From an uncultured virus (IMG/VR IMGVR_UViG_3300012147_001294) (taxonomy: Duplodnaviria > Heunggongvirae > Uroviricota > Caudoviricetes): a stretch of 20,000 nt of DNA. A model generated the notes under the pieces. The model ran no database searches and was not told the DNA's origin. It worked only from the letters and a program-made list of their open reading frames with translations. Both the position numbers and the translations under genes were made by a program. Below, one piece after another: positions 1 to 19,739 of this stretch. The stretch's first letter is position 1, and every line of letters begins with the position of its first letter. The stretch lies in the IMG/VR virus record IMGVR_UViG_3300012147_001294; one strand, 5' to 3'.

Positions 1-486
1 TAACCCCTCCATTACTTCGGTCTTTGTTTTTTGTGCCTTAGCCGCTGCAAATAATGTATTAACTCTTAATTGCTGTTTTACACTTTTATCTTCAGTATGC
101 TCTTTTTTTGTCCTAGCACCTTTACTTTCACCCATATCGATTTGAATCCTTGAATTATCAAATTTAATATCCTGAAATATAACACCATCTTTACCAAAAC
201 GAGATTTAAGTATTGCCATAGTTGCTGTACCATCATCTTTTTGGTCTAAAGTTTTAGCGATTGACACGATAAAGTGACCAATCTGACCTTTTTTAATAGA
301 ACCACCCATTTGGTTTGCTTCCACCACTTCTGCTGAAAGAGAACTATTGTGTGTATAGATATCATTAGCGTAAAACATATGTGTTTCCTCTACTGTTATA
401 TCAATGGTGTCCTCTTCTCCGATTAATTCTATTGATTCAATTTCATCTAACTCAAAATCGTCTAAGTTTAAATTGTGTTCTATCAT
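1..486 (-). CDS. dnaB: C-terminal half of split DnaB/gp41-like helicase: 47-aa C-intein fused to the helicase C-extein (3' end runs off the window)
   Basis: Not in the ORF track; translated by hand from ATG 486 with no stop to position 1: MIEHNLNLDDFELDEIESIELIGEEDTIDITVEETHMFYANDIYTHN|SSLSAEVVEANQMGGSIKKGQIGHFIVSIAKTLDQKDDGTATMAILKSRFGKDGVIFQDIKFDNSRIQ... Contains the intein end THN|S and the DnaB-family KSRFG arginine-finger motif that the upstream ORF lacks. Confidence 0.93.
   Translation of the reverse strand, partial: MIEHNLNLDDFELDEIESIELIGEEDTIDITVEETHMFYANDIYTHNSSLSAEVVEANQMGGSIKKGQIGHFIVSIAKTLDQKDDGTATMAILKSRFGKDGVIFQDIKFDNSRIQIDMGESKGARTKKEHTEDKSVKQQLRVNTLFAAAKAQKTKTEVMEGL
346..486 (-). 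other. C-intein (IntC, 47 aa) of a naturally split intein
   Basis: Block F/G pattern DEIESIELIGEEDTIDITVEETHMFYANDIYTHN followed by Ser+1 (codon 345-343); 15 D/E and no K/R. Confidence 0.93.
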
Positions 487-549
487 TTATTTTTTTTTAA
501 CTCCATAATCCTTACTAATTAAATAGTAACAGAAATAGAAATATTTACA

Positions 550-2871
550 CTATTTTTTAGTTAATAATTTATCACCAACACTTAACCCAGTAGATATTGA
601 CCTTAATTTACCACATTTAACTGGGAATTCATGTTTACTAGAAACAAATATTTCCTTACCAGACTTTAATTTAATTTTATAAACTGGTTGTTTTTCTATT
701 GGAAAAACAGTAGTAATTTTTTTATACCCATCATTTGTTAATATTTCATCACCCTCAATAACATTCTTTATTTCTGTTTTACCCAACCTAATTATTTGAA
801 CCTCAGTATCTATTCGCACGCAACGATTTCCTTGAACCGCTGTCCAACCAGCCATATCTAGTTCAGATAACAACGTCTCAAATTGTCTCATTACACTTCC
901 TTCACCAGCGTTTATATCATCAAATTTTCTTGATGGTTCAACGCAATCTATGTAGTCTAATAAGATTAAGTCTGGTCTAAACCCTTGTGCGATTAATTTT
1001 CGGATATATTGTCTAATCATAGGTATTGTTGTCCCATCGCTTGAAAATTTTACTAATCTTAAATCACCTAGCTTTTGTTTTTCAGCGACAATCGTCATAA
1101 CTTCATCATGATGTGACGACAAATCATTTAGAGGGATGCCTGTCCAACAAGATAAGTGTTTTCTTTGAATAACTTTTGGGTTATCTTCGAAAAATATTTG
1201 TAAAACATTATAACCATCATTAGCTCCAGTATTCGCTATTTTTGTCATCATTGTTGTATTATGTGTGACGATAAAATCGTCTGTAACATATAAATGCTCT
1301 GGGTCATCAACCATAATACATTTAGCTTCTTCATCATGTGAATATTCAATACTTTCTATGAACTTATTGTCAGAGTGGTTATCGTTATTAACCACTCTGA
1401 CTAACTTACTGTTTAATTTAAATGGAACTACACCATTTTCTTTAGGAAATGAAATAACTAATCTATAAGTTAATTCCCCTACTTTATTAGAAACTAAACA
1501 AGAACCACCCAAAGATAGAACTAATTCTTTAACGTCATCACATAGCTGTTTAGAAACGGTATTATATCCAACACTACCATCTTTTCCAACACTACCATCG
1601 TTATCTAATAACCCTTGTAGAATCTCTTGTCTATTGTTAATTGAGTTATATAGATATTCTTTAGGTATAAATTTATTATTAGATGACGAATCAAATAACC
1701 CAAGTTTTTTTATTACATCGGTGATTTGATTTATGGTTACGATAACATCATCTTTATACATTTCAACACCGTATGTTGAATCACCACTCATACTTTGTTT
1801 AATGTATTCTATCAGTTCAAAATCTTTAGTTACTATTATAGAAGACTTGAAGTATTCATCACCTATTAATAACCCCAAAAGGTATGGGTTTAACGGTAAT
1901 TCTTTTTCGTCAAAAATAACTGGTTTAACTGTTGGAATCTTATAGTTAAACTCACCTTTAGGGTCAGAATTTAACTTTTCAATAATATCACTGGTTTTCA
2001 TAACAGTAAAATCATCGTTTGGGTCCAATTTAGTTTGTTGATTAACTGACCATAAGTGTTCTTTATCACACATTGTTGATGTTCCATCATTAAACTTTAC
2101 TTGGTAAATTGGTCTGATACCTTGTGGGTAAACCCCAGTAACATTTGTTTGTCTACCTAACCTATTAATTACCCTATCACCAACTTTAATATCACCCATT
2201 AAACAATAACCACTTGGAGTATAAATTTTACTCGAAACACCTTGTGCTTTACCAACACCAAATGGTGCTAATATAACACCTAATTCACCTTTGGATAGAC
2301 CACCATCCATTATTTCGTCTAACCCAGAAATACCAGTTGGTATTGGTTTCCTAAAATCAACATCTAAAACACTACTTATGTTGTCATAGACACTCATTCC
2401 TTGGTCTTTGTTATCACCAACTTCGAGTGATTTTCTTAACATAGCTTCGATTTGGTCGAAATTATCCAATCCACCACTTTTATTTAGTTTTTCAACATTC
2501 ACTAAAGTCTTCAACATGTCTTGCTGTTTACAAAACCTCATAGCCATGTCTTGGACTTTTAATGTATCATTTAAATCGGCTTCTTGTATTTTTCTAAGTT
2601 GTGCAATGACGTATTTTTGTTGTATATCGTCTTTAACTTCTTCTAATAATCTAAATTGTAGACTACCAATATCTGGTACTATGTTATCAATTCTATGTGC
2701 ATCTTTAATTGTAGCAACAATTATTTTCAAATACGAGTCAGCAAAATAATTTGGGTCAACGATATCTAAAATAGATTCACTAAATTTTCTATCCGTTATA
2801 AATTGTGCAATTAGTCTAATTTGATAATCGTAACCTAAATAACCAAAACTATCTCTATCTAACACCGCCAT
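550..2871 (-). CDS. dnaB: N-terminal half of DnaB/T4 gp41-like replicative helicase, with a contiguous intein in the P-loop and a C-terminal N-intein
   Basis: PIPTGISGLDEIMDGGLSKGELGVILAPFGVGK|T Walker A (interrupted), LQIFFED, LILLDYID Walker B, WTAVQGNR motif; then switches to intein sequence and stops at TAG 552-550. Confidence 0.95.
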   Translation of the reverse strand: MAVLDRDSFGYLGYDYQIRLIAQFITDRKFSESILDIVDPNYFADSYLKIIVATIKDAHRIDNIVPDIGSLQFRLLEEVKDDIQQKYVIAQLRKIQEADLNDTLKVQDMAMRFCKQQDMLKTLVNVEKLNKSGGLDNFDQIEAMLRKSLEVGDNKDQGMSVYDNISSVLDVDFRKPIPTGISGLDEIMDGGLSKGELGVILAPFGVGKAQGVSSKIYTPSGYCLMGDIKVGDRVINRLGRQTNVTGVYPQGIRPIYQVKFNDGTSTMCDKEHLWSVNQQTKLDPNDDFTVMKTSDIIEKLNSDPKGEFNYKIPTVKPVIFDEKELPLNPYLLGLLIGDEYFKSSIIVTKDFELIEYIKQSMSGDSTYGVEMYKDDVIVTINQITDVIKKLGLFDSSSNNKFIPKEYLYNSINNRQEILQGLLDNDGSVGKDGSVGYNTVSKQLCDDVKELVLSLGGSCLVSNKVGELTYRLVISFPKENGVVPFKLNSKLVRVVNNDNHSDNKFIESIEYSHDEEAKCIMVDDPEHLYVTDDFIVTHNTTMMTKIANTGANDGYNVLQIFFEDNPKVIQRKHLSCWTGIPLNDLSSHHDEVMTIVAEKQKLGDLRLVKFSSDGTTIPMIRQYIRKLIAQGFRPDLILLDYIDCVEPSRKFDDINAGEGSVMRQFETLLSELDMAGWTAVQGNRCVRIDTEVQIIRLGKTEIKNVIEGDEILTNDGYKKITTVFPIEKQPVYKIKLKSGKEIFVSSKHEFPVKCGKLRSISTGLSVGDKLLTKK
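553..822 (-). other. N-intein (IntN, 90 aa) of a naturally split intein
   Basis: Starts at Cys684 after QGNR: block A CVRIDTEV, block B-like KSGKEIFVSSKHEFP, and LSVGDKL end, then stop. No block F/G in this ORF. Confidence 0.93.
1258..2247 (-). mobile_element. Class 3 (Ala1, W-C-T) intein with LAGLIDADG homing endonuclease domain, 330 aa
   Basis: Inserted at GVGK|T. Begins AQGVSSKIYTPSG (Ala209); block B CDKEHLW (Trp274); block F AKCIMV (Cys518); block G VTHN (Thr536) then Thr+1. LAGLIDADG-like motifs YLLGLLIGDE and LQGLLDNDGSV. Confidence 0.92.
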
Positions 2872-2912
2872 TTATCATTTTTTTAATTATTAATTCAAAC
2901 TTTGATATAAAT

Positions 2913-3386
2913 TTATCTTTTATTAGTAAATTTTCTATTACTAAAACATTCTCTAATTTCATAAATTATTTCTGGGATTATCTCTTTTATGTTTACATTC
3001 ACTTTTAATGATAAGTGAAAAAACTCATTTGGAAAGATTGATTCCCCACGAACTTCTTTATCTAAAAGAAATTGAAACTTAAACTCATCCATTTTTTTTG
3101 GTGGTGATTTATAAGTTTCTTGCGATTGGTCAATGTACGGGTTGTAATTGGACCACATATAATCATTCGATTGTTTTTTTAAAAATGTAGGGATTATACC
3201 TAATCTACCTAAATCGTTTAAATGCATACCTGAAACTTCATCTAACATTTCTTTCATGTTTGTCATGTTTTCATCAAAATCAAAAATATGAAAACCTCGT
3301 TGACAAACAATATTATTGTTTACATAAAGGATAAATTCAAACCTATCATTGTCGAATTTTTTAAACGCTTCTTTGTTATTTTCCAT
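2913..3386 (-). CDS. Hypothetical phage protein (157 aa) between the exonuclease and helicase genes
   Basis: ATG-start ORF that tiles the gap on the coding strand; no motif recognised. Confidence 0.8.
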   Translation of the reverse strand: MENNKEAFKKFDNDRFEFILYVNNNIVCQRGFHIFDFDENMTNMKEMLDEVSGMHLNDLGRLGIIPTFLKKQSNDYMWSNYNPYIDQSQETYKSPPKKMDEFKFQFLLDKEVRGESIFPNEFFHLSLKVNVNIKEIIPEIIYEIRECFSNRKFTNKR

Positions 3387-8736: not shown

Positions 8737-8768
8737 CAAAGTTACTAAATTATTTTAAATTATGCAAA
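8737..8768 (-). promoter_or_regulatory. Bacteroidota-type housekeeping promoter (-33 TTTG / -7 TAnnTTTG)
   Basis: Minus strand reads TTTG(8768-8765)-N20-TAACTTTG(8744-8737)-CTTT-ATG. Confidence 0.7.
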
Positions 8769-11700
8769 TTGGTCCCATCTTTTAATAGCTGAATTATAAA
8801 TAGCTAATTTTTGATTAAATGTAGGTGTTCCTAAATTAAAATTAGCTTTATCCGCTGGTGACCACCATCGATTAATATATGTTGTTACCCAATCATTAGC
8901 ATTATCACTATTGAATCCTTTACTTCTGACTCTATCAACCATAAATTTTAAGAAACCATCATCATCATCAAATACAGCAAACGCTCTTGTTTTACCGCCA
9001 CTATCAACTCTACAATATTGACCAGTAATCCCAGGTGAACCCCATTTACCACCATCCGTCTGAACACCAGAATAATTAAAACCACCAGCTGATTTGAAGC
9101 TAGTTCTTTCTGCATTTTTACTAGCTTCCGCAAACATAATAGCAAAAACAGCCTTACCTAACCCAATATCGGATGTTATTAATTTAATTTTATTAACTGT
9201 CGTATTATAACCAATTAGTGTAGGTTCTGGGATTGGATTTTGGAATTTAAAATCATATTTTGGTGATTTACACCCAATCGCTCCTTCTATACCATTTTGT
9301 CTATCACTGGCGTTGATTGTCTTATAATTACACCCAATGTATACCGCTTCTTTTCCATCTTTGCCTTTAGGGTTTTTAACAAATGGTTTAATTAATTCTT
9401 CTTTTATTTCAGACAATGGATTGTCAGAGGCTTTATTGCCTCCAGCACCTGGTATTGGTCTATTCCTTAACATACAAATAGCTGATTTACCATGATATTC
9501 CCAATGCCAGTGTTCTTCACCATTTACTTTACCTAATCCTTGACCATCGTTGGCCCAATATGGTTGTACGAAACCATATTTGTAAGAATTTCTATATAAC
9601 CAACCAATTGCTGGGTTTTCTTCAAAATTAAAAAATTTAGCTGGGCTACCAGTGGTGAATTCATTTCTAAAAATACCTTCCGAACCATTTCGCCTAAACA
9701 TTTGTAAATCAACAGCAATACCCCAACCATGTGGTGAGTTTTGTTTGGGTCTCACTCTATACATAGAGGTTATATATGCATGTATAGCGTTATCTCCAGA
9801 ACCAGAAACTGGTGTGAAATCGTTTTCACTCATCCATTTACCCCAATCAGTTAACATATTAGTTAATGGTACAGCAGCCTCAGTAAGCATTCTTTTATCT
9901 GGGTCTAATTCAAAACTAATATATTTTATTTTATCTATTTTAGTTAAAGTTATATTATTACTTTCTATTATTGAATTAAGACTACCATTTTCTATTATTG
10001 TTTGGATTATTGGTGCATAACTTCCAGTTTTAAAACTACCAGTTTCACCATCTATAACACCAGTCCCAGCATTTTCCGTATCTATTGAATCAGTAAGTGA
10101 CATAAATAAATCATATGCCGTAATCAATGGTGTGTCAGAATATCTAGTCCTTGTACCAGTAAATACTGTTGACATATAATTTGGTTTTATATTATGTTTT
10201 ACTCCTGTAATCATATAAGCACCATGAAACATGGGTATGTTGTCCAATTGAAAATACATCATAGGTTGAATCATGGCGTTACCCATCATTTCAACTTGTG
10301 CTTTGTAACTTCTGACTGAATATACATTAAAAATATTTTGTCCAGCTAAAGACCTATTAGTTTGACCACCTTTTTGTGAAATGTCCTCTTGAATTTGTAA
10401 AGACTCATCAGTTTCGATAAATTCACTTTGGTCTAATAAAATATCTTTAAATATATTTTGATTTTGTTGACCATAAGCAACTTTAAACACTGCAACTGGG
10501 TCTTCCCCATCTGATATATCGGTAGTGAAATCATTTGGTGCATCGGTAGAAACGTTTCCATCATTACACTCAAAATCAAAACTATCATTACCATATTCTG
10601 AATTATTAAAATCTAAATGTTTTGATGGTTGTCCAGCATAAACACAAACAAAGTTAGGTCCGCATGAACCGTTTGCTATTGCTTCTTCGTAATTTGGGTA
10701 TGTCCCAAACATGGCTTTAAGGTTTTCAGGGTCTTTGTAGTTCACAAAAGTAGGTAATGCATTGAAAACAAATTTATTTGAATCCAATAACCCACTAATA
10801 GCGTCATATGCAGAAGTGTTAGGTGATTTTATTAAATAGTTATTAACAGGTATAGGGTTGATAAATAATTTGTCGCCTATGTCTTGAAATGACCTACTGA
10901 CAAATCTAAAACTATCAATAAGACTTGGTGTATCACGACCATTATTTTTGGCAAGTTCTAAATCTACCTTACTCCTCACACTTCTACTACTACTATCACC
11001 ACATTGAAAAATTAAATTCTTTGGGTCGGTAGCTCCAGCTAACCATTTATCGTTTATGTTTTTACATGTTGTATATAAAATAAATTTAATTACACTCTCA
11101 TCTGTTGTCCCAAAAACTTGTTGTTCAATTTTTCTTTTAATTAATGTTGGTGAAAAAGAGTCAATTTGTGTTTTTATTTCAGTAATTAGAGCCGATAAAT
11201 ATATGTTAAATGATGCGACAGAAACGGAGTTTATGTATCTGTTATTACCAGAGTCAGTTTCATCCCTCCATATTTTATAATTATTGTTAACGATAATAAC
11301 TTCTTGTTTCATAGCATCGATTAATGCCTTAACCCCAGAATTAGTGGCATAGTTACCACCCATTTCTAAAGCTAAATAATCGTTATCCCGACTAGACACA
11401 TTCGATTCATTTCTTGGGGGGCCAATAGGTGTCATTATAACATAATTTTTACTTTTAAATTTGTCATTTATATAGTTAACAACACTTATCGTGTCGTTTT
11501 TTTCATTTACAGCGTTTTTTATGGTATTTAAAAATGAATTAAACTCAGTAGAGTTGCCTGAAAAAATTTCTAGTTCATTTTTAAGTTCATTCCAACTTAC
11601 CTTATCATCAGTTCCATTAACAAAACTGAAAAAAGAGTTTTTAAATTCTTCAATTACTTGAATAGGTAATCTTCTAAAGAGAGAATCTTTATCAATGTTT

Positions 11701-14700
11701 ACGTAATCTTTACCTAACGATAGACCCCATTCTAGCCACTGTAACAACTCGTCCCTATCATGGTTGCCACCAAAAGTTACATCCCAAAGTGTTTCACCAT
11801 TTTTACTCCAAAATATGGGGTCTTTAGGGTTATCGTTGGTTCTGTTTCCATCACTAACACCAGAACCACCACCAATTAATAAACCGCCCTCAATGATTGG
11901 GTCCTCTGAAGATAATCTCCATAATATGCTCCCAACCCAAGCACACCATAGTCTTGGAGAATGAATGAACCCAGCTTTTTGATTGAATAAATGTTTTATT
12001 TCGTTTACTTCAAAAGGTGAACCATCTGATGTATTCCAAGGTAAGTTGTTTAAAAACAAAAAGGCTTTGGAATAATTTCCACAGAAATAAATACTTCCAT
12101 CTTGAGATTCAATCTTTGCTCTACTCTGACCATAATAAAATTTACTACCAAATAATGAAAAAGAATGATTATCAGTACTACTCCTATATTCTTCAGTGCC
12201 AAAACCAGTAGTAAAACTAGTATCGAATGCTGGTTGTTCAAAATATGGGAAGGTAATTGATGTATCACCATTAATTAACGCATTAAATAATTCTCTATTA
12301 AGCCCGATATCTTCATGTAAAACATTATCTTCATTATCTAAAAAAAATTTTTCTTTTTCTTTAGGTGTACTTCTAGTAGTCATCAGACTTTCTTTATCAA
12401 AATCATACTTTGTCTTGAGTGGTGTAATCTTATCTGCCGATAATTTTCTGCTTCTACTTAAACCTTTACTGGCTGAATTTCTGTAAAAGACGTACATTAA
12501 AGGTAGTTTTGACCCAATACTACCACCAAAATCCATTTTAACATATTCTTGAATACCCAAAGAACCACCAAATGAATTATAGCCAGCTGTTGAATCCACT
12601 GTGTCATCTGACATTTTAGCTAAATCAAACAAACTTTCAGTTTCAATATTATCTGAGGTTGGAAATAATTTTACGTTATTTTTAAATGAATCAACAGGGA
12701 TTATTTTCATATACATACTTCCATCAATTGGTTTTTTATTTGATAATCCATCACCGTGATAGTTGGTTAAAAAGAAACTATCTGTTGCTTTATTAGCATT
12801 ATTATCCCACCTAGCTTTTTCTTTTAACTCATCTGGGGAAATTAACCATTCACCACTAAAGGTATCGCTAATTGGTATTATGCTTTCCCTTCTTTCAGCC
12901 CTTGGGTTAGCGTATATGTAGTTATTTTCGGCTTTTATTAATAAATTTTTAAAACCATCATTTTTATCTATTTTTACATTAATATAATCTTCTAAACTTA
13001 ATTGAGAAATTGACTGCAAAAGGGTTTTATTTGTGATGTTTCTTACTATCGCATCAACTTCTATTTTAGCCATTACCTCAATTTCTTTATTCTCGACATC
13101 TAAAGTGTTACTACCATTAGTATAACCTAGAAATGTTATACCTCTGTGTATAATCATACGTATCACTTCTTCTTTAGTGGTATAAGTTGTTCTGGCATAC
13201 GGTTCTTGTTCATTAAATAATTTAGTATCTAATGGGTTTACTGGGAACCAAGTTGTTTCAATCGTAGCTATTTCTGTTTCTACTTGATTGGTTAATTCTT
13301 GAGAAATTATAAATGCTTTTAATAAATCATCAATAAAGTTTAATTCATCAACTAATTGAGGGTTTTCCAAAACGCCATAATCACCAAGATATTTATCAAC
13401 AAAATTACCGTCAATCTCTTTTTCTTTATAATCTGGCCAAGCAAAGAATTTATTTTTATTTATGCTATTTTTTTTAATGTCTGTAGAACTAACTAAATCG
13501 GTTGTGAATTTTTTTGCTAATTCTTCAGTTCTGGTTATATTTAGTTCTGCCGCATTAGATACAGTATAGATAGTTTCCATCATTACCTCAATAGCTACAG
13601 TGAAAATCTCTGTTATATTTTTGACCGTTGGTTCAAAACTTAAGTTATTGCTAAAAGAATTTTTTAATTCCTCGGCCAAAACCATCTTTGTATTTTTTTC
13701 GGTTTTTTTCAGTTCGTTAACGCTGTTAGCTAACGTTTTATATATTTTAGTTAAATTATACGCATCAAAAACTAAATCGTCACTTAAACCATTTTTATAA
13801 TATTTATTCAGATAATTATTTATATTTTTTTTGTATTGTAACATACCATCAAATGACCCAATTACCCCAGTTAAATAATCATCGGTTTCAGACCCAGATA
13901 AAGATTTTTTAGTTTCAAATACTGTTAAACCTTTGTCTATTCCAATTGTAGTTAAATCAGTAAAATCAATTAATTTAAGGGTAACAATATTAGTTGTTAG
14001 TTTGTTAAATTTTTCTATATTTAATGAAATCATTGAAGTATAATCGTTGATGGCTTTATTAACTATATCAGGTTTTTTATTATTAGGTTTTATAATGAAA
14101 GTAAATTCAGGTCTAGCTAACTCTGGAATAACATCTAAAGCAACACCTAGAATATTTAGATTATTTTTAATTTCATCTATTAGTTTTAATGCCTCGTTTA
14201 TACTATTGAGATTTTTTGACGCATCAGAATTATTTGATATTTTTGGGATACCTTCATTTATTTTACCAATGGCAATCATTAACTCGTTTAAATCTAAAAT
14301 TTTTGAAGTTCTTTTTAAATTTATGGCGGCATATATCGATTTACCGATTTCAGTATATGGTATTGCTTTCATATACCCAATAATTAAATCCGATAACATA
14401 GCATAAGTATAACCAACAAATTGACATTGAATTTCAAAGTTACCAGTTTTTGAATTAAATTTAGCGTTAAATTTAAGCATATGAAGACAGTAAGTTACTG
14501 GCTTACCGTAATAACCTTTTATCTCCAACTCAAATAACGGGTATGGTAATTGAAAAAAAACGCCATATTTATTCCCTGAATTATTACCAGAAATATTTTC
14601 CTCGTTTTGAAAAATAGAGCTACCTCTCACATCAACGAAATCAATACTAATCATTGGTGCCATTGATGGATTAAAAGAAATATCGATATTTGTGATACCT

Positions 14701-15011
14701 AAAGTTTCACTATTTAATGTTCCTTTATCAAATACCGTAGTTAAATCAGTATACTTAGTTGTTAGTGATTTACCAGCTCCTGTTTCACTTCCTTCAATGA
14801 AATTAACAGATATTTTACTAGAACTTTCTACCGAACTACTTTCACCTGTTGTGCTTAATACTGTTCTAGCCTTTCTACTTGTTCTTAAAATAACAGATAT
14901 GTTTAAATCCTCTAAAGGAACTGACATATTATTACTTGAATCAAACCCATCTCTATCGTTTGGGTCAACTATTGTTAACTTACCAGCACTACACCCTATT
15001 TTATTCTCCAT
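8760..15011 (-). CDS. Giant baseplate hub-like virion protein (~2083 aa) with C-terminal M15/VanY-type Zn peptidase and lysozyme-fold (GH73-like) domain
   Basis: Hub/gpD-like segment VEMMGNAMIQP...GAYMITGVKHNI...TVFTGTR (~10150-10320); M15 motifs SMYR, SPHGWGIAVD, YGF, EHWHWEY (~9490-9770); C-terminal AIMFAEAS..FNYSGVQ..RAFAVF. Start placed at ATG 15011, which overlaps the upstream stop, rather than 15059. Confidence 0.78.
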   Translation of the reverse strand: MENKIGCSAGKLTIVDPNDRDGFDSSNNMSVPLEDLNISVILRTSRKARTVLSTTGESSSVESSSKISVNFIEGSETGAGKSLTTKYTDLTTVFDKGTLNSETLGITNIDISFNPSMAPMISIDFVDVRGSSIFQNEENISGNNSGNKYGVFFQLPYPLFELEIKGYYGKPVTYCLHMLKFNAKFNSKTGNFEIQCQFVGYTYAMLSDLIIGYMKAIPYTEIGKSIYAAINLKRTSKILDLNELMIAIGKINEGIPKISNNSDASKNLNSINEALKLIDEIKNNLNILGVALDVIPELARPEFTFIIKPNNKKPDIVNKAINDYTSMISLNIEKFNKLTTNIVTLKLIDFTDLTTIGIDKGLTVFETKKSLSGSETDDYLTGVIGSFDGMLQYKKNINNYLNKYYKNGLSDDLVFDAYNLTKIYKTLANSVNELKKTEKNTKMVLAEELKNSFSNNLSFEPTVKNITEIFTVAIEVMMETIYTVSNAAELNITRTEELAKKFTTDLVSSTDIKKNSINKNKFFAWPDYKEKEIDGNFVDKYLGDYGVLENPQLVDELNFIDDLLKAFIISQELTNQVETEIATIETTWFPVNPLDTKLFNEQEPYARTTYTTKEEVIRMIIHRGITFLGYTNGSNTLDVENKEIEVMAKIEVDAIVRNITNKTLLQSISQLSLEDYINVKIDKNDGFKNLLIKAENNYIYANPRAERRESIIPISDTFSGEWLISPDELKEKARWDNNANKATDSFFLTNYHGDGLSNKKPIDGSMYMKIIPVDSFKNNVKLFPTSDNIETESLFDLAKMSDDTVDSTAGYNSFGGSLGIQEYVKMDFGGSIGSKLPLMYVFYRNSASKGLSRSRKLSADKITPLKTKYDFDKESLMTTRSTPKEKEKFFLDNEDNVLHEDIGLNRELFNALINGDTSITFPYFEQPAFDTSFTTGFGTEEYRSSTDNHSFSLFGSKFYYGQSRAKIESQDGSIYFCGNYSKAFLFLNNLPWNTSDGSPFEVNEIKHLFNQKAGFIHSPRLWCAWVGSILWRLSSEDPIIEGGLLIGGGSGVSDGNRTNDNPKDPIFWSKNGETLWDVTFGGNHDRDELLQWLEWGLSLGKDYVNIDKDSLFRRLPIQVIEEFKNSFFSFVNGTDDKVSWNELKNELEIFSGNSTEFNSFLNTIKNAVNEKNDTISVVNYINDKFKSKNYVIMTPIGPPRNESNVSSRDNDYLALEMGGNYATNSGVKALIDAMKQEVIIVNNNYKIWRDETDSGNNRYINSVSVASFNIYLSALITEIKTQIDSFSPTLIKRKIEQQVFGTTDESVIKFILYTTCKNINDKWLAGATDPKNLIFQCGDSSSRSVRSKVDLELAKNNGRDTPSLIDSFRFVSRSFQDIGDKLFINPIPVNNYLIKSPNTSAYDAISGLLDSNKFVFNALPTFVNYKDPENLKAMFGTYPNYEEAIANGSCGPNFVCVYAGQPSKHLDFNNSEYGNDSFDFECNDGNVSTDAPNDFTTDISDGEDPVAVFKVAYGQQNQNIFKDILLDQSEFIETDESLQIQEDISQKGGQTNRSLAGQNIFNVYSVRSYKAQVEMMGNAMIQPMMYFQLDNIPMFHGAYMITGVKHNIKPNYMSTVFTGTRTRYSDTPLITAYDLFMSLTDSIDTENAGTGVIDGETGSFKTGSYAPIIQTIIENGSLNSIIESNNITLTKIDKIKYISFELDPDKRMLTEAAVPLTNMLTDWGKWMSENDFTPVSGSGDNAIHAYITSMYRVRPKQNSPHGWGIAVDLQMFRRNGSEGIFRNEFTTGSPAKFFNFEENPAIGWLYRNSYKYGFVQPYWANDGQGLGKVNGEEHWHWEYHGKSAICMLRNRPIPGAGGNKASDNPLSEIKEELIKPFVKNPKGKDGKEAVYIGCNYKTINASDRQNGIEGAIGCKSPKYDFKFQNPIPEPTLIGYNTTVNKIKLITSDIGLGKAVFAIMFAEASKNAERTSFKSAGGFNYSGVQTDGGKWGSPGITGQYCRVDSGGKTRAFAVFDDDDGFLKFMVDRVRSKGFNSDNANDWVTTYINRWWSPADKANFNLGTPTFNQKLAIYNSAIKRWDQFA

Positions 15012-15404: not shown

Positions 15405-18400
15405 TTAATTTACGAAATCAATCAAGGTCTTTGAATCACGTAAATATTTTCTATCGTAAAAAAACTTTATATCTAATTCTGGTATTGAAATAACGAAAGT
15501 TAATTTATTACTTGGTTCAATAGCGAAATCACCTATAATAGCACCCCAATTTTTTACTTCAGATAAAAATACCGTATTGTTTTCTTCTGTAATATTTTTA
15601 AGTTTAAACGATACTAATTCTAATGAATTCATTGTTGTTACATTAGAATTTAAAGTTATTTTTACGTCATATTCTTTTGATAATTCTTGATTAGAATCAA
15701 ACCCAAATTTACCACCTAAAGTGTTAAATGTACTTATCTGAATCGTAAAATAATCTTTTTTTAACGTTAAAAAATTTTTCAGAATATCATAATCACTAAC
15801 AGTAACTTCTAAATCAGTGTTTACTGATGTCGATTGACCACTTTGTGAGACTTCCGTTTCATTTTCTTTTTCTTGATTTATATTTTCATTATCAATAATT
15901 TCCATACCGTTTTCATCTTTTTCTATTTCAGATATATCTTTTATTCCATTGTGTAAATACCATGGTCTAAATGTATTAACTATTTCGACTCCTGCTAATT
16001 CAATCCCATTAAATGGTTCATCAATTACTGGTGCTATCTCACTAACTTTAGCTGGGGCAATCATTGGTTTATCTTTTGATATGTAATCAGCTCTAGGGTC
16101 GTAAACTTGTGTGTTTGCAAAATAGTTAAACGATAACGCATTTTGTAATTTGTTAATTGGCCCCATAAGGGTAGAACCACCAATAAATTTAAAACTCATA
16201 CTAACATTGGCAATCATTGGTTGGACACCAATACCCTCTGGATTTAAATCCCAAACCAATGGCTCATAATCAATACTAACGTTATCAATCACTATTTTAG
16301 TATTATAAAAATCACCAATTCTTAAAATACATATCGGTGGTCTACCAAATGCTAAATTTGTCGCACCTTGTTCTTCCATAGTTGGTCCTTGTCTAGTACA
16401 TTGTAATAAAAAAGTTAACCTAGAATTTAATCCTTCTGGTGTAGTCGAATGGAAAGCTGGGTGAAAATATTTTATTTTTTGTCTAAAACTATCAAACACT
16501 AATGGGTCTTCATCAGTTAATTTGTCAAAATATAAAGTTTCATTGTAATATTTACCACTTATTTTATTATTTATTCTTCTATTGTTATTATCGTCATTAA
16601 TTACTTCTTTTTTAGGTAAGTCTTCACCAGCAATGTCTTTACTGTAAATAAACGATACTTTGGCTACCCTGTCTTGTTTACAAGCTAATGAATCGGTAGG
16701 ACACTCTGCCGCTTGTCTTAATTTTGGTATTCCTTCGCAAGGAATGCAGCCAATTGATTGAATCTCTATCGTTTCACCAATAATAAACCTTTTATCAAAG
16801 TCAGCGTCAGTTAATTTAGGTGAACCAGCTTTTATTGATGGCCACCATCTTTGTTTAATGTCTTCCTTTAGATTAATTGCTCTATCTTTAGCTAATTTAT
16901 TATTATAAACAATATTTCCTTGTCTACTAGCATAGCCAGTTATCGTAGCAATAAAGTTTGGTGATACTTCAATTAAATGTTTTGTCATTAATTCAACAAG
17001 TTTAGGGTCAAAATAACCATTTAATACTTGACTATCTGCACAAACAATTGTTGGTGAAGTTGCTGGGCTTCGTTTTTCTTCAATATTTTCAGAATAATTT
17101 AACCCAAAATTATATCTGTCTGGCCAACCTTCACCATCGGATTGGATGCTGTTGTTTCTGGCACCAGGGGTGTAATTAGCCATATAATTTCCAAGTCCTT
17201 GGTCTTCACCGTTTTCATTGACTGAATAATCTATGGGTGTTGAATCTGTTTTGTTATTAAGACCGTTTTCATATAATAATTCAATAGCTGCGTTATCGTT
17301 AGGAAAATAAACTGATATATCTGTGGGTACCACTTCTTCTTCAATAACTTTAACATCTTCATTTATTGGTGTTGATTTAACTATATCGCTAATTTGGGAT
17401 GGTGTTAATTTTTCACTAAATTTACTATCTGGGTCAATACATCCAGCCCAAAATGAAGCCATATAACTGTCATCTGGTCCTTCTTCCCCTCTAAAACTAT
17501 TTATATAACTAGGGTGGTCAACAATAATTTGAAATGATAAATTACCTGTTCTTTCAGTATTATTGTAAGTGTATATTGGTTCTCCACGCCCAATAAAATT
17601 ACTTGTTTCCCAACTTAAACTACTATTTTCACTAAAGTTAATATTATATGGTGGAAACCACATGATTCTACCTTTTTTACCAGTTAGTAGGTCTCCTGGG
17701 CCACGCTCTGACCTAGGCAATAAAGTATTACTATCAGCCCAAGCAAGGTTTTCAATAGAAAACATATATTGTTTTGGGTCTGTAGGTATGTCATCAGTGT
17801 AAGGTGTTATTTTTGGAATACCAAATTCACTTAATATTGACCCTTGAGTATTATTACGATATGGAACTGTAGTATTAATTCCGTTTACTGTAGTTGCACC
17901 CTTATTATCAATACCATCGGTACCACTTCTAACTAACTTTTTAACTCTATCGTATCTATCAAGAGTGGTCCAACTTCTACAATAAGTATCATTAGCTGAT
18001 ATGTTCTCTTCACCTTTATATCTACCTTGTTCGTTAAATAATGAAGCTTTTAATACTGCATTACCTTTGGAAAAACCTTTACCGTTGGCTGTCTGTATTT
18101 GAGATGATTTTTTATCCATATCCCCTTTAGCTGTAATGATATTAATCATACCTTTACTGTTGAATAGTTTTTGGGTTTTAATTAATAAAGATTTTCTATC
18201 ACCTACAAGTTCATCATTTCGACCAATTATATCTTGTATAAATCTAAAATTATCTGGTAATATTAGTTCATTTATGGTATTTACAGCCTCACCATTTGTA
18301 GATGTCCAAGTAAAGTTAACATCACTTACTTTTCTGTTTTCGTATCCACTATTACCTCTTGGTCCAGCACCTATTTCTTCTGGGCTTAAAAATCCAGACT

Positions 18401-19739
18401 CTATTACTTTTTGTTCTCTATTATAACTTAAACTTGGTATAACACCACCAGTAACCCCAAACTCCATACTACTCAATAAATTAACAAAATGTCCTTGTCC
18501 GTTACTGTAAGCATAAAGGTTTGGTGAAGATATTGCGTCTTTGGAATAATCTCCCTTATTATTTGAATAAGCTGGACTATAGCCGCTTCTAAATACACTA
18601 TTTAAAGGTGAGTCTACCCCACCGTTACTAATACCATCTAAGTTGGCTTTAAAATTACTAATTAACGCCAATGCTTGACCACTACCAGTATATTTAAGCA
18701 TCTCATTTGCTCTATCAATATTCTCTGAATCCCCATTTTCTGTTTGAAAAATAGAACCAGCATCACCTAAATAACTTCTTGGTATCGTAAAGCCTAGTAT
18801 TTTGCCCGCTGTGTCCAAAATTCGTCCACCAGTAGTACTTGGTACCGTAATCTTATAAGTAGGTCTTAAACCGACTAATCCATCGCCTTTAATAAGACTT
18901 AAAATATTGTCTTTAACATTTAAAGCACCCAATAGTTCTTGTTGAACATTAAATGCTGCATTATTAGCTAAAGCTAAGGCTAATTGTTGTCCACCAACCA
19001 TGCCAAGTTTGGTATCATTGATAATCCCAGTTGCACCTAGTAATCTACCAGCTATTGAAGACCTAATATTAAAACTAGTAGTTAAACCACCACTACCAAA
19101 ACCCAATCCTTGTCCACTTAAAACACTACCAATGATATTTGCTGTTTTTATCGCACCCCCACCACCAATATTCAAACCACCTTTTTCATCTAAATAACCA
19201 GATATTTGGTTTGTAAAATTTACTTGGTCATTGACGATAAAATCAGCTACATCTAATTGTTGTGATTCATCTTTATATAAGTTCTTTTTAAGATTTTTAT
19301 TTTTTGTTTCAGCTAACTTAGTTTTAGCTAATAAACCATATTCAATAATACTTTCGTTAACACCAATTGGATAAGATATTGGTGTATTTGGCCAATTTGA
19401 ATCTGGATTTGAAGGTAAATATTGAACACCTAATAAATCATTTGCTGTTGATGCTGTATTTTGGAAAGTGTTTACGGAAATGTTGTTATCCTTGAAAATA
19501 ATACCATTTGTTTCTAATGGTAAAAAATTAGGAATTACGTTAACATTATTATTTACGGTTAAATCCAATAATGGTTCACCAATCCTTGGACTACCATTTA
19601 AAGAAGTTGAAATAGTAGGATAGCTTGGGGGGAGATTTAAATTTAATAAAAAATCCCTAATCCCGTAATCAACTGTAACACCATTTATTGTATTTTTTGT
19701 TGAATATGAAGGAGATGCTGTATTATAGTAAATTGGCAT
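15405..19739 (-). CDS. Large baseplate/tail-tube-initiator-like protein (1444 aa) with internal OmpA-like peptidoglycan-binding domain
   Basis: Tube-fold-like halves FSENSSLSWETSNFIGRGEPIYTYNNTERTGNLSF (~17530-17670) and PPICILRIGDFY...VSIDYEPLVWD...QPMIANVSMSF (~16190-16340) flank an OmpA-like VYFPND...ITGYASRQGNIVYNNKLAKDRA...CKQDRV (~16660-17315). Confidence 0.72.
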   Translation of the reverse strand: MPIYYNTASPSYSTKNTINGVTVDYGIRDFLLNLNLPPSYPTISTSLNGSPRIGEPLLDLTVNNNVNVIPNFLPLETNGIIFKDNNISVNTFQNTASTANDLLGVQYLPSNPDSNWPNTPISYPIGVNESIIEYGLLAKTKLAETKNKNLKKNLYKDESQQLDVADFIVNDQVNFTNQISGYLDEKGGLNIGGGGAIKTANIIGSVLSGQGLGFGSGGLTTSFNIRSSIAGRLLGATGIINDTKLGMVGGQQLALALANNAAFNVQQELLGALNVKDNILSLIKGDGLVGLRPTYKITVPSTTGGRILDTAGKILGFTIPRSYLGDAGSIFQTENGDSENIDRANEMLKYTGSGQALALISNFKANLDGISNGGVDSPLNSVFRSGYSPAYSNNKGDYSKDAISSPNLYAYSNGQGHFVNLLSSMEFGVTGGVIPSLSYNREQKVIESGFLSPEEIGAGPRGNSGYENRKVSDVNFTWTSTNGEAVNTINELILPDNFRFIQDIIGRNDELVGDRKSLLIKTQKLFNSKGMINIITAKGDMDKKSSQIQTANGKGFSKGNAVLKASLFNEQGRYKGEENISANDTYCRSWTTLDRYDRVKKLVRSGTDGIDNKGATTVNGINTTVPYRNNTQGSILSEFGIPKITPYTDDIPTDPKQYMFSIENLAWADSNTLLPRSERGPGDLLTGKKGRIMWFPPYNINFSENSSLSWETSNFIGRGEPIYTYNNTERTGNLSFQIIVDHPSYINSFRGEEGPDDSYMASFWAGCIDPDSKFSEKLTPSQISDIVKSTPINEDVKVIEEEVVPTDISVYFPNDNAAIELLYENGLNNKTDSTPIDYSVNENGEDQGLGNYMANYTPGARNNSIQSDGEGWPDRYNFGLNYSENIEEKRSPATSPTIVCADSQVLNGYFDPKLVELMTKHLIEVSPNFIATITGYASRQGNIVYNNKLAKDRAINLKEDIKQRWWPSIKAGSPKLTDADFDKRFIIGETIEIQSIGCIPCEGIPKLRQAAECPTDSLACKQDRVAKVSFIYSKDIAGEDLPKKEVINDDNNNRRINNKISGKYYNETLYFDKLTDEDPLVFDSFRQKIKYFHPAFHSTTPEGLNSRLTFLLQCTRQGPTMEEQGATNLAFGRPPICILRIGDFYNTKIVIDNVSIDYEPLVWDLNPEGIGVQPMIANVSMSFKFIGGSTLMGPINKLQNALSFNYFANTQVYDPRADYISKDKPMIAPAKVSEIAPVIDEPFNGIELAGVEIVNTFRPWYLHNGIKDISEIEKDENGMEIIDNENINQEKENETEVSQSGQSTSVNTDLEVTVSDYDILKNFLTLKKDYFTIQISTFNTLGGKFGFDSNQELSKEYDVKITLNSNVTTMNSLELVSFKLKNITEENNTVFLSEVKNWGAIIGDFAIEPSNKLTFVISIPELDIKFFYDRKYLRDSKTLIDFVN

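Follow-up and report, generated by a model that had tools for sequence, protein, structure and literature searches.

In an uncultured lake phage with AT-rich DNA, the replicative helicase is encoded by two neighbouring genes, each of which carries one half of an intein. In the stretch of 20,000 nucleotides analysed here (the window, which belongs to the 65-kb virus record IMGVR_UViG_3300012147_001294), a functional, naturally split class 1 intein very probably interrupts a gp41/DnaB-type replicative helicase directly after its conserved Q-x-N-R motif. No splicing residue is missing and all are conserved, so that the locus is best read as a case of trans-splicing, and the proposal of an earlier note on this DNA that the helicase is assembled in this way is supported at the level of sequence.

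Results

Anatomy of the locus

The helicase locus lies on the minus strand at the beginning of the window and is made up of the following segments:

2248..2871, minus strand: helicase extein 1, 208 aa, with the Walker A P-loop GVGK at its end
1258..2247, minus strand: intein 1, 330 aa, contiguous, in the P-loop
823..1257, minus strand: helicase extein 2, 145 aa, ending in ...AVQGNR; Pfam DnaB_C at residues 539-683
553..822, minus strand: N-intein (IntN), 90 aa, Cys1 first, net charge +7
550..552, minus strand: stop codon TAG of the N-part gene; identical letters in contig L002
487..549, minus strand: spacer, 63 nt, without an ORF
346..486, minus strand: C-intein (IntC), 47 aa, ending in THN, net charge -15
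1..345, minus strand: helicase extein 3, from Ser+1 (SSLSAEV...), 115 of its 119 aa inside the window

Two polypeptides are specified, each with one intein half fused to an extein. The N-part ORF (550..2871, minus strand) encodes 773 aa with the C-terminal sequence ...AVQGNR|CVRID...LLTKK, which is the helicase ORF with a 90-aa N-intein tail that the earlier note had described. Beyond the TAG at 550-552 and the 63-nt spacer, a fresh ATG at 486 opens the C-part ORF (1..486, minus strand), and here too the sequence bears out the earlier description of a separate downstream ORF with a 47-aa C-intein and the helicase C-terminus: a 47-aa segment ending in ...YANDIYTHN is followed by SSL... and, further on, by KSRFG. 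The C-part ORF comprises 166 aa in full (L001:1486-1986), its last four codons and its stop lying beyond the window start, and the spliced helicase would thus have 208+145+119 = 472 aa; the collinear helicase of at least 468 aa (208+145+115) proposed earlier had counted the in-window part of the last segment.

The two intein halves share a frame and are 21 codons apart, and a second in-frame stop, the TAA at 487-489, stands immediately before the ATG. The spacer includes nine consecutive A, an error-prone context for sequencing, and a GGAG at 501-504, 14 nt ahead of the ATG and hence at a greater distance than usual. Promoter and terminator scans found no promoter-like or terminator-like sites in the 63-nt spacer. 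A hairpin has been described upstream of the gp41-7 C-part (Dassa et al., 2009; PMC2677866), but we do not claim a regulatory hairpin of this kind in the spacer, as the predicted RNA fold is only weak (-15.5 kcal/mol over 114 nt, a value without a shuffle control).

Intein-free relatives are continuous over both junctions, so that the boundaries are known to the residue. The 476-aa helicase of one such relative, L010, reads uninterrupted through GVGK-TTMMTKIANT and AVQGNR-SSISADVV and is 71%, 82% and 80% identical to exteins 1, 2 and 3, respectively, and the segment preceding IntN adjoins the segment following IntC in one frame in 60 of the 80 related viral loci. Extein 1 matches the PHROG DnaB-like replicative helicase family (E 7e-37), and the host protein is a DnaB/gp41-type replicative helicase. 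Its lineage is without a close isolate: cultured phages gave neither a megablast match to window positions 1-3000 nor a tblastn match to the C-part ORF at E 1e-5.

The intein halves and their splicing residues

The solved gp41-1 intein is the best structure match for both halves (6QAZ; E 4e-14 with IntN, E 2.5e-4 with the C-part ORF, in which IntC matches 6QAZ residues 91-128), and from this similarity IntN and IntC are predicted to assemble into a HINT fold. IntN is 46% identical (38/83) to the gp41-8-like representative P0303 and 41% identical (37/90) to P0335, to which IntC is 48% identical (20/42); P0335 corresponds in sequence to the gp41-1 that Dassa et al. print in their supplement. The two halves score 20.0 and 18.4 bits against Pfam Intein_splicing, under the gathering cut-off of 35.8.

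IntN starts with the nucleophile Cys1 directly after QGNR, and this residue is the same in all 16 IntN sequences aligned, as are the Ser and the His of block B, where S-S-K-H fits the pattern (T/S)-x-x-H and aligns with the gp41-1 block. At the end of the C-half, THN|S supplies H46, N47 and S48, which are invariant in all 32 aligned C-parts, and HN followed by S, C or T occurs at residues 45-62 in 118 of 120 C-part homologues among the matches listed. The dN/dS ratio on the intein halves lies between 0.03 and 0.38 in the 10 of 13 pairwise comparisons with computable dS, with dS saturated in several.

The split is reproduced in other contigs and in relatives

Some relatives have a contiguous allele of this intein (L021, L038 and 8 of 120 longer proteins), the two halves share a frame across a 21-codon gap and the spacer holds the error-prone run of nine A. 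An intein that is truly a contiguous mini-intein, with the TAG at 550-552 and the TAA at 487-489 as errors, would agree with these features. However, such an artefact would need errors at two separate stops, and the same letters recur elsewhere. A separate 105.5-kb contig (L002) has a single difference in 4,486 bases and an identical spacer, and contigs of X4, a run without a source flag, cover 401-551 with no difference and 523-775 with one; the second contig and the non-source-run contigs are otherwise letter-identical and without insertions or deletions. The comparison with sequencing runs used assembled contigs, and among those of non-source runs no single contig bridges IntN and IntC with a 31-letter margin at either end. 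Moreover, the diverged loci L003, L005, L006 and L014/L015 have the same intein split point with their own stops, starts and frames, the break lying in another frame or involving a stop/start overlap in relatives such as L005 and L014, and 118 of 120 C-part proteins among the matches listed begin at one common Met position, give or take a few residues. An artefact is therefore extremely improbable, and the 487-552 spacer with both its stops, for which the earlier note had sought confirmation, is reproduced in assembled contigs, namely the second contig and those of other lake samples.

One intein family in three forms

The C-part belongs to a family of 448 similar proteins (E <= 1e-3). Among the 150 best representatives of 50% clusters, 125 have the N-half at the C-terminal end, although some of these may be genes cut by a contig end, and NR|C occurs in 73 of the 150. 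Given these counts for a single family, the earlier statement that natural split inteins are rare is overstated.

Twenty of the 80 related loci examined carry the window's intein. In six of these the split halves are -1 to 63 nt apart and in 11 they flank an insert of 1.08-1.27 kb, while the intein is contiguous in two (L021, L038) and cut by the contig end in one. An ORF of 352-410 aa is found in nine of the 11 inserts, and the three insert ORFs tested all match Pfam DUF559 above the cut-off, and MTES_1575 below it; in the 1,095-nt gap of L041/L042, a script scan found no Met-started ORF of at least 80 aa. A contiguous intein of 128-143 aa is present at Q-x-N-R|C in eight of 120 longer homologues. 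The family occurs as a contiguous mini-intein, as an intein split around a free-standing Vsr-like endonuclease gene and as an intein split without such a gene, the last being the form in the window, where the 63-nt spacer between the halves has no ORF. Across related loci, exteins with 30-65% identity accompany intein halves with 55-89%, and the loci with the closest exteins (L010, L017) are without the intein.

Further inteins on the same record

Intein 1, which is missing from the L010 helicase, has Ala as its first residue, ends in THN|T and contains a LAGLIDADG endonuclease domain (Pfam LAGLIDADG_3, Hom_end). Class 3 inteins combine a non-nucleophilic first residue with a Trp in block B, a Cys in block F and a Thr in block G, and intein 1, with Ala1 and the Trp/Cys/Thr triplet, looks like a member of this class. 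Its best PDB match is 6BS8/6OWN (E 8e-12), and its H-L-W, K-C-I-M-V-D and T-H-N align with H-Q-W, R-C-V-E-V-D and T-H-N of 6BS8. These entries and 6RIX, whose PDB titles say only 'Replicative DNA helicase', we take to be class 3 DnaB P-loop inteins; the P-loop insertion, the non-nucleophilic first residue and the triplet are shared with intein 1, whereas the crystallised forms have 139-146 aa and intein 1 adds the LAGLIDADG endonuclease domain.

The 65-kb record holds five intein-like elements. Two further split inteins divide nrdA into three genes, and a mini-intein lies in a Rad50-like gene. Among the papers listed by a literature search, no title or abstract described a natural gene divided by two split inteins; one text (PMC3653736) mentions pairs of putative inteins in phage nrdA genes, though not split ones.

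Discussion

How might an intact helicase arise from this locus? The anatomy, homology, conservation and forms in relatives are observed, whereas co-transcription, the sequence of steps and the chemistry of splicing are inferred. Both genes are probably on one transcript, and the 773-aa N-part would lose its P-loop intein in cis first. The basic IntN (+7) and the acidic IntC (-15) would then associate and fold as one HINT domain, in which a Cys1 thioester would be attacked by Ser+1 of the C-part, followed by cyclisation of Asn47 and an O-to-N shift, to yield a helicase of 472 aa joined at GNR-SSL. On this reading, the locus is the endonuclease-free end state of a 'fractured gene'.

It is conceivable that the intein halves merely act as a clasp that holds the helicase fragments together without joining them covalently, and the Aeh1 NrdA provides a precedent for a fragmented phage enzyme that assembles without splicing (PMC3045599). 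Yet Cys1, the block-B His, the final His-Asn and Ser+1 are all present and family-invariant, and a clasp would not need them, which makes this scenario very unlikely. Even less probable is that the locus is decaying, with a helicase gene that has been inactivated by mobile elements and has fallen out of use. While the two inteins in the helicase gene and the five intein-like elements in 65 kb could be taken to point in this direction, each extein remains intact and runs collinear with the helicase of the intein-free relative (71-82% identity), dN/dS stays below 0.4 on the intein halves, and tblastn queries made from the helicase pieces did not turn up another helicase copy in the 65-kb record, which is only approximately 19% complete.

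The fractured-gene arrangement was already described by Dassa et al. (2009), including an endonuclease-free gp41 locus, gp41-7 (PMC2677866), an allele of gp41-1 which, like the window, has no endonuclease gene between its halves. The system at hand is therefore not of a new class; the kind has been known since 2009 and has hundreds of members in public metagenomes. The earlier note had put forward a candidate new split-intein pair, and this is fair in that there is no near-identity to any characterised pair, whereas novelty of kind is overstated given this precedent (PMC2677866).

The likeness to gp41-8 that had been suggested earlier is seen both in the flanks, GNR|S versus SQLNR|S, and in the N-half, given its 46% identity to P0303. 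The host of gp41-8 is likewise a phage gp41-type helicase, and this intein is in use as a ligation tool with the flanks SQLNR / SAVEE (PMC11168065), compared with VQGNR / SSLSA in the window; NR|Cys1 and HN|Ser+1 are common to both. The halves of gp41-8 as printed in the Dassa supplement measure 89 and 45 aa versus 90 and 47 aa, with a basic N-half and an acidic C-half as in the window, and a by-eye count on the printed sequences gives approximately 45% identity for the N-half and 53% for the C-half. An endonuclease gene occupies the gap of gp41-8, as it does in relatives of the window's intein but not in the window itself. Judged from five residues per side, the window's intein sits at a gp41-8-type site, after the helicase Q-x-N-R, and its sequence marks it as a distinct lineage at this site rather than an allele of gp41-8.

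The gp41-1 intein (6QAZ/6RIZ) shares the split point and the charge polarity with the window's pair, at 41% identity in the N-half and 48% in the C-half. Its native flanks are TRSGY|SSSDV and its integration point differs, and when the Arg residues are aligned the gp41-1 site would lie three residues downstream of the window's. Different integration points for gp41-1 and gp41-8 are also reported by Dassa et al., as are opposite net charges of the halves for both inteins (PMC2677866). We considered the charge polarity as a special device against mispairing and set this idea aside, as the polarity matches that given by Dassa et al. for each intein lineage (PMC2677866).

Fast, mutually orthogonal split inteins serve as protein-ligation tools, and the gp41 family is among their best sources. 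The window's pair is natural, diverged, endonuclease-free and 41-48% identical to characterised pairs, and its contiguous and endonuclease-bearing relatives at the same site give engineering several natural variants built on the same split point. For evolution, all stages of the 'fractured gene' model are found within a single intein lineage. An appealing extension, towards which we lean only slightly, is that this phage is a natural multi-intein assembly line, with three mutually divergent endonuclease-free split inteins at work in one cell along with two contiguous ones. If so, orthogonality in vivo is required of the helicase pair and of both NrdA pairs, and most of all of the latter, since the middle piece would be lost from the product of a mis-pairing, and the window's pair would be part of a ready-made, co-evolved orthogonal set for multi-fragment ligation that is distinct from gp41-1 and gp41-8.

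A two-piece gp41 with an IntN tail and an IntC head, as here, also occurs in a T4-like isolate, Shigella phage ESh36 (ON528746). Its IntN is 36% identical to the window's IntN, its insertion site is further downstream (...SDIAE|C, ...TKN|S) and, unlike in the window, a 333-aa ORF lies between the halves; the ESh36 helicase is at most 29% identical to the window's helicase lineage.

Layout of the split helicase gene

The viral record has 65,429 bases (G+C 29.8%) and is about 19% complete by estimate; the window is its final 20 kb. The helicase gene and the adjoining region comprise the following features (a slash in motifs marks a splice junction):

550..2871, minus, N-part helicase ORF of 773 aa, with C-terminus ...AVQGNR/CVRID...LLTKK
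1258-2247, minus, intein 1, contiguous, 330 aa, in the P-loop (GVGK/A...THN/T)
550-552, minus, stop codon of the N-part, TAG in the sequence
487-549, minus, 63-nt spacer between the N-part stop and the C-part ATG
486 to beyond the window, minus, C-part ORF, 166 aa in full by the flanking DNA of the record (L001)
8763-15011, minus, very large ORF of 2,083 aa in the adjoining region
15408-19739, minus, very large ORF of 1,444 aa in the adjoining region

The N-part consists of extein 1 (208 aa), intein 1, extein 2 (145 aa) and the N-half of the split intein (IntN, 90 aa). Residues 1-47 of the C-part are the C-half (IntC, 47 aa), ending ...YANDIYTHN, and the remainder (SSLSAEV...KSRFG..., extein 3, 119 aa) is the helicase C-terminus. 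Thus the 90-aa N-intein, 63-nt gap, 47-aa C-intein and KSRFG-containing C-terminus claimed in the earlier note were all found, on the minus strand. Within the spacer, GGAG lies 14 nt upstream of the C-part ATG, which is immediately preceded by another in-frame stop, TAA. Exonuclease, UvsX-like recombinase and SSB genes lie near the helicase in the window, and nrdB and then nrdA follow the C-part ORF in L001. No PHROG family was found for the two very large ORFs at E <= 1e-5.

Boundaries were mapped by cutting both products into six pieces and searching each against 80 related viral loci. Extein 2 adjoins extein 3 in one frame in 60 of these 80 loci, and the intein-free relative L010 has an uninterrupted helicase of 476 aa in which GVGK-TTMMTKIANT and AVQGNR-SSISADVV read through (71%, 82% and 80% identity to exteins 1, 2 and 3). 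Since these joins are uninterrupted, both inteins are delimited to the residue. The predicted spliced helicase would be 472 aa, which sharpens the earlier figure of at least 468 aa by counting the full 166-aa C-part ORF.

Identity of the split intein

Among solved structures, IntN best matches the gp41-1 intein (6QAZ, E 4e-14), and the C-part ORF matches residues 91-128 of 6QAZ (E 2.5e-4), with DnaB and other inteins next among its matches. Pfam Intein_splicing matches both halves, in each case under the Pfam cut-off. All 16 aligned IntN sequences share Cys1 and the block-B Ser and His, and all 32 aligned C-parts share His46, Asn47 and Ser+1. With both halves matching 6QAZ and the splicing residues invariant, the proposal of a trans-splicing split intein in the helicase is supported at the level of sequence. 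The dN/dS of the halves is 0.03-0.38 in the 10 of 13 pairwise comparisons with computable dS, the other three being dS-saturated. Net charge is +7 for IntN and -15 for IntC, a polarity that Dassa et al. (PMC2677866) also describe for the gp41-1 and gp41-8 halves.

Reality of the split

L002, on a different contig of 105.5 kb, shows a single difference across 4,486 bases, and its spacer is unchanged. Window positions 1-1300 were compared with Logan contigs (assembled contigs, not reads) from four runs of lake or aquatic samples, and these showed no insertions or deletions. A possible source run covers 1-871 with 0 differences; run X4, not flagged as source, matches 401-551 exactly and 523-775 with a single difference, and contigs of runs X3 and X6 extend from IntC into the spacer. 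None of the non-source Logan contigs alone bridges the full gap plus 31 letters to either side. The stronger argument for a real split is the comparative evidence from diverged relatives: L003, L005, L006 and L014/L015 are split at the same intein point, the gaps being 36, -1, 12 and 14 nt long and the relative frames of the halves differing, and the same IntC stands at the start of 118 of 120 C-part homologues among the matches listed.

Proposed splicing route

Because no promoter-like or terminator-like site was found in the 63-nt spacer, the N-part and C-part are likely co-transcribed. One transcript would then serve both genes, IntN and IntC would pair and fold, and the paired halves would splice by the standard four-step class-1 reaction, which is established intein chemistry, with Ser+1 as second nucleophile. 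Intein 1 would also have to be removed from the N-part, so this one helicase gene would need one cis- and one trans-splicing event. Intein 1 has Ala as its first residue and contains a LAGLIDADG domain; in alignment with PDB 6BS8 its block-B His-x-Trp, block-F Cys and final Thr-His-Asn correspond. With Ala1 and the Trp/Cys/Thr pattern, the class 3 signature, it resembles an intein of class 3.

Relation to gp41-8, gp41-1 and ESh36

The native flanks are TRSGY/SSSDV for gp41-1 and SQLNR/SAVEE for gp41-8 (PMC11168065 supplement), and the window flanks, VQGNR/SSLSA, follow the gp41-8 pattern. Against the gp41-1 and gp41-8 inteins printed in the Dassa supplement (PMC2677866), identity to gp41-8 is about 45% (N-half) and 53% (C-half), counted by eye; in computed alignments, IntN is 46% identical to the gp41-8-like representative P0303, and the protein corresponding to gp41-1 (P0335) is 41% identical to IntN and 48% to IntC. 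The likeness to gp41-8 that the earlier note proposed is therefore borne out by the NR/S flank and by P0303, and comparison with both pairs gives no near-identity (halves 41-53% identical). Judged by the five flanking residues on each side and by the identity values, the window pair forms its own lineage at the site of gp41-8 and is no allele of a characterised pair. No close cultured relative of the helicase lineage was found, the best tblastn identity being 29% among 2,445 matching records. In the T4-like isolate Shigella phage ESh36 (ON528746; L082:1382-4362), gp41 is likewise broken in two with intein halves at the break, and its IntN is 36% identical to ours. The site differs (...SDIAE/C), and a 333-aa ORF lies in its gap, whereas the window gap holds none. 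The ESh36 gp41 pieces are annotated simply as 'DNA primase/helicase' and 'hypothetical protein'.

Abundance, forms and mobility

Natural split inteins had been called rare, a view that does not fit the 448 database homologues of similar length to the C-part ORF (E <= 1e-3). The window pair thus belongs to a kind of system already known and abundant in metagenomes; the practical interest of the pair is moderate and its conceptual novelty low. IntN has 242 representatives (50% clustering) at E <= 1e-3 and 78 at E <= 1e-10; among the best 150 of the 242 it is the C-terminal end in 125, some of which may be genes truncated by contig ends, and the NR/C flank occurs in 73. A contiguous intein of 128-143 aa at Q-x-N-R/C was seen in 8 of 120 longer homologues among the matches listed.

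The helicase split intein is present in 20 of the 80 related loci.

Forms of the helicase split intein in the 20 loci
Split with short gap: 6
Split around a 1.08-1.27 kb insert: 11
Contiguous mini-intein: 2 (L021, L038)
Locus cut by contig end: 1

Nine of the 11 inserts contain a 352-410 aa ORF, and all three tested match Pfam DUF559 above and REase_MTES_1575 below the cut-off. The window locus is endonuclease-free, as is gp41-7; Dassa et al. (PMC2677866) found this state a single time (gp41-7), and their model has it as a late stage. The intein halves of relatives are closer to the window than their host exteins are (82% and 89% versus 47-65% in L003; 66% and 83% versus 32-42% in L009), and the relatives with the closest exteins are without the split intein, which fits a mobile element. 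In the relatives L041/L042 (2060-2200) an IntC-like block lies immediately upstream of helicase extein 2, an intein-like piece at another site.

Further intein-like elements in the record

Outside the window, other parts of the record (L083 and L084) hold these features:

G000:C1:41154-44396 (L083:4155-7397), minus, nrdA in three adjoining ORFs of 528, 327 and 205 aa, just outside the window
G000:C1:7586-10387 (L084:587-3388), minus, Rad50/SbcC-like ORF of 933 aa with a mini-intein-like P-loop insert
G000:C1:39023-40705 (L083:2024-3706), plus, 560-aa ORF beside the nrdA pieces on the opposite strand

The nrdA ORFs are separated by 1 and 53 nt and carry two more split inteins, at ...SSNL/C and ...PTAS/S, with no endonuclease gene between the pieces; nrdA is uninterrupted in relatives L017, L023, L024, L027 and L045 (80-86% identity). 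The three split pairs are mutually 26-33% (N-halves) and 37-43% (C-halves) identical. A relative (L016:6640-7854) with an 85%-identical NrdA extein also carries the first NrdA intein; the N-half there is 99% identical, and about 800 nt of inserted sequence separates the halves, which suggests recent horizontal movement of this intein. In another relative (L026:5941-7151), an intein-like insert of about 1.2 kb lies within the first NrdA extein. The Rad50-like insert begins after ...NQGGK/C and ends ...SHN/T, and over 36 aa its C-terminal block shares 47% identity with the window IntC. In the 560-aa ORF, zinc-ribbon-like motifs recur (DUF4379, DUF723) and the Mom family gives a weak match; this ORF is possibly a mobile, free-standing gene for a nuclease or for modification.
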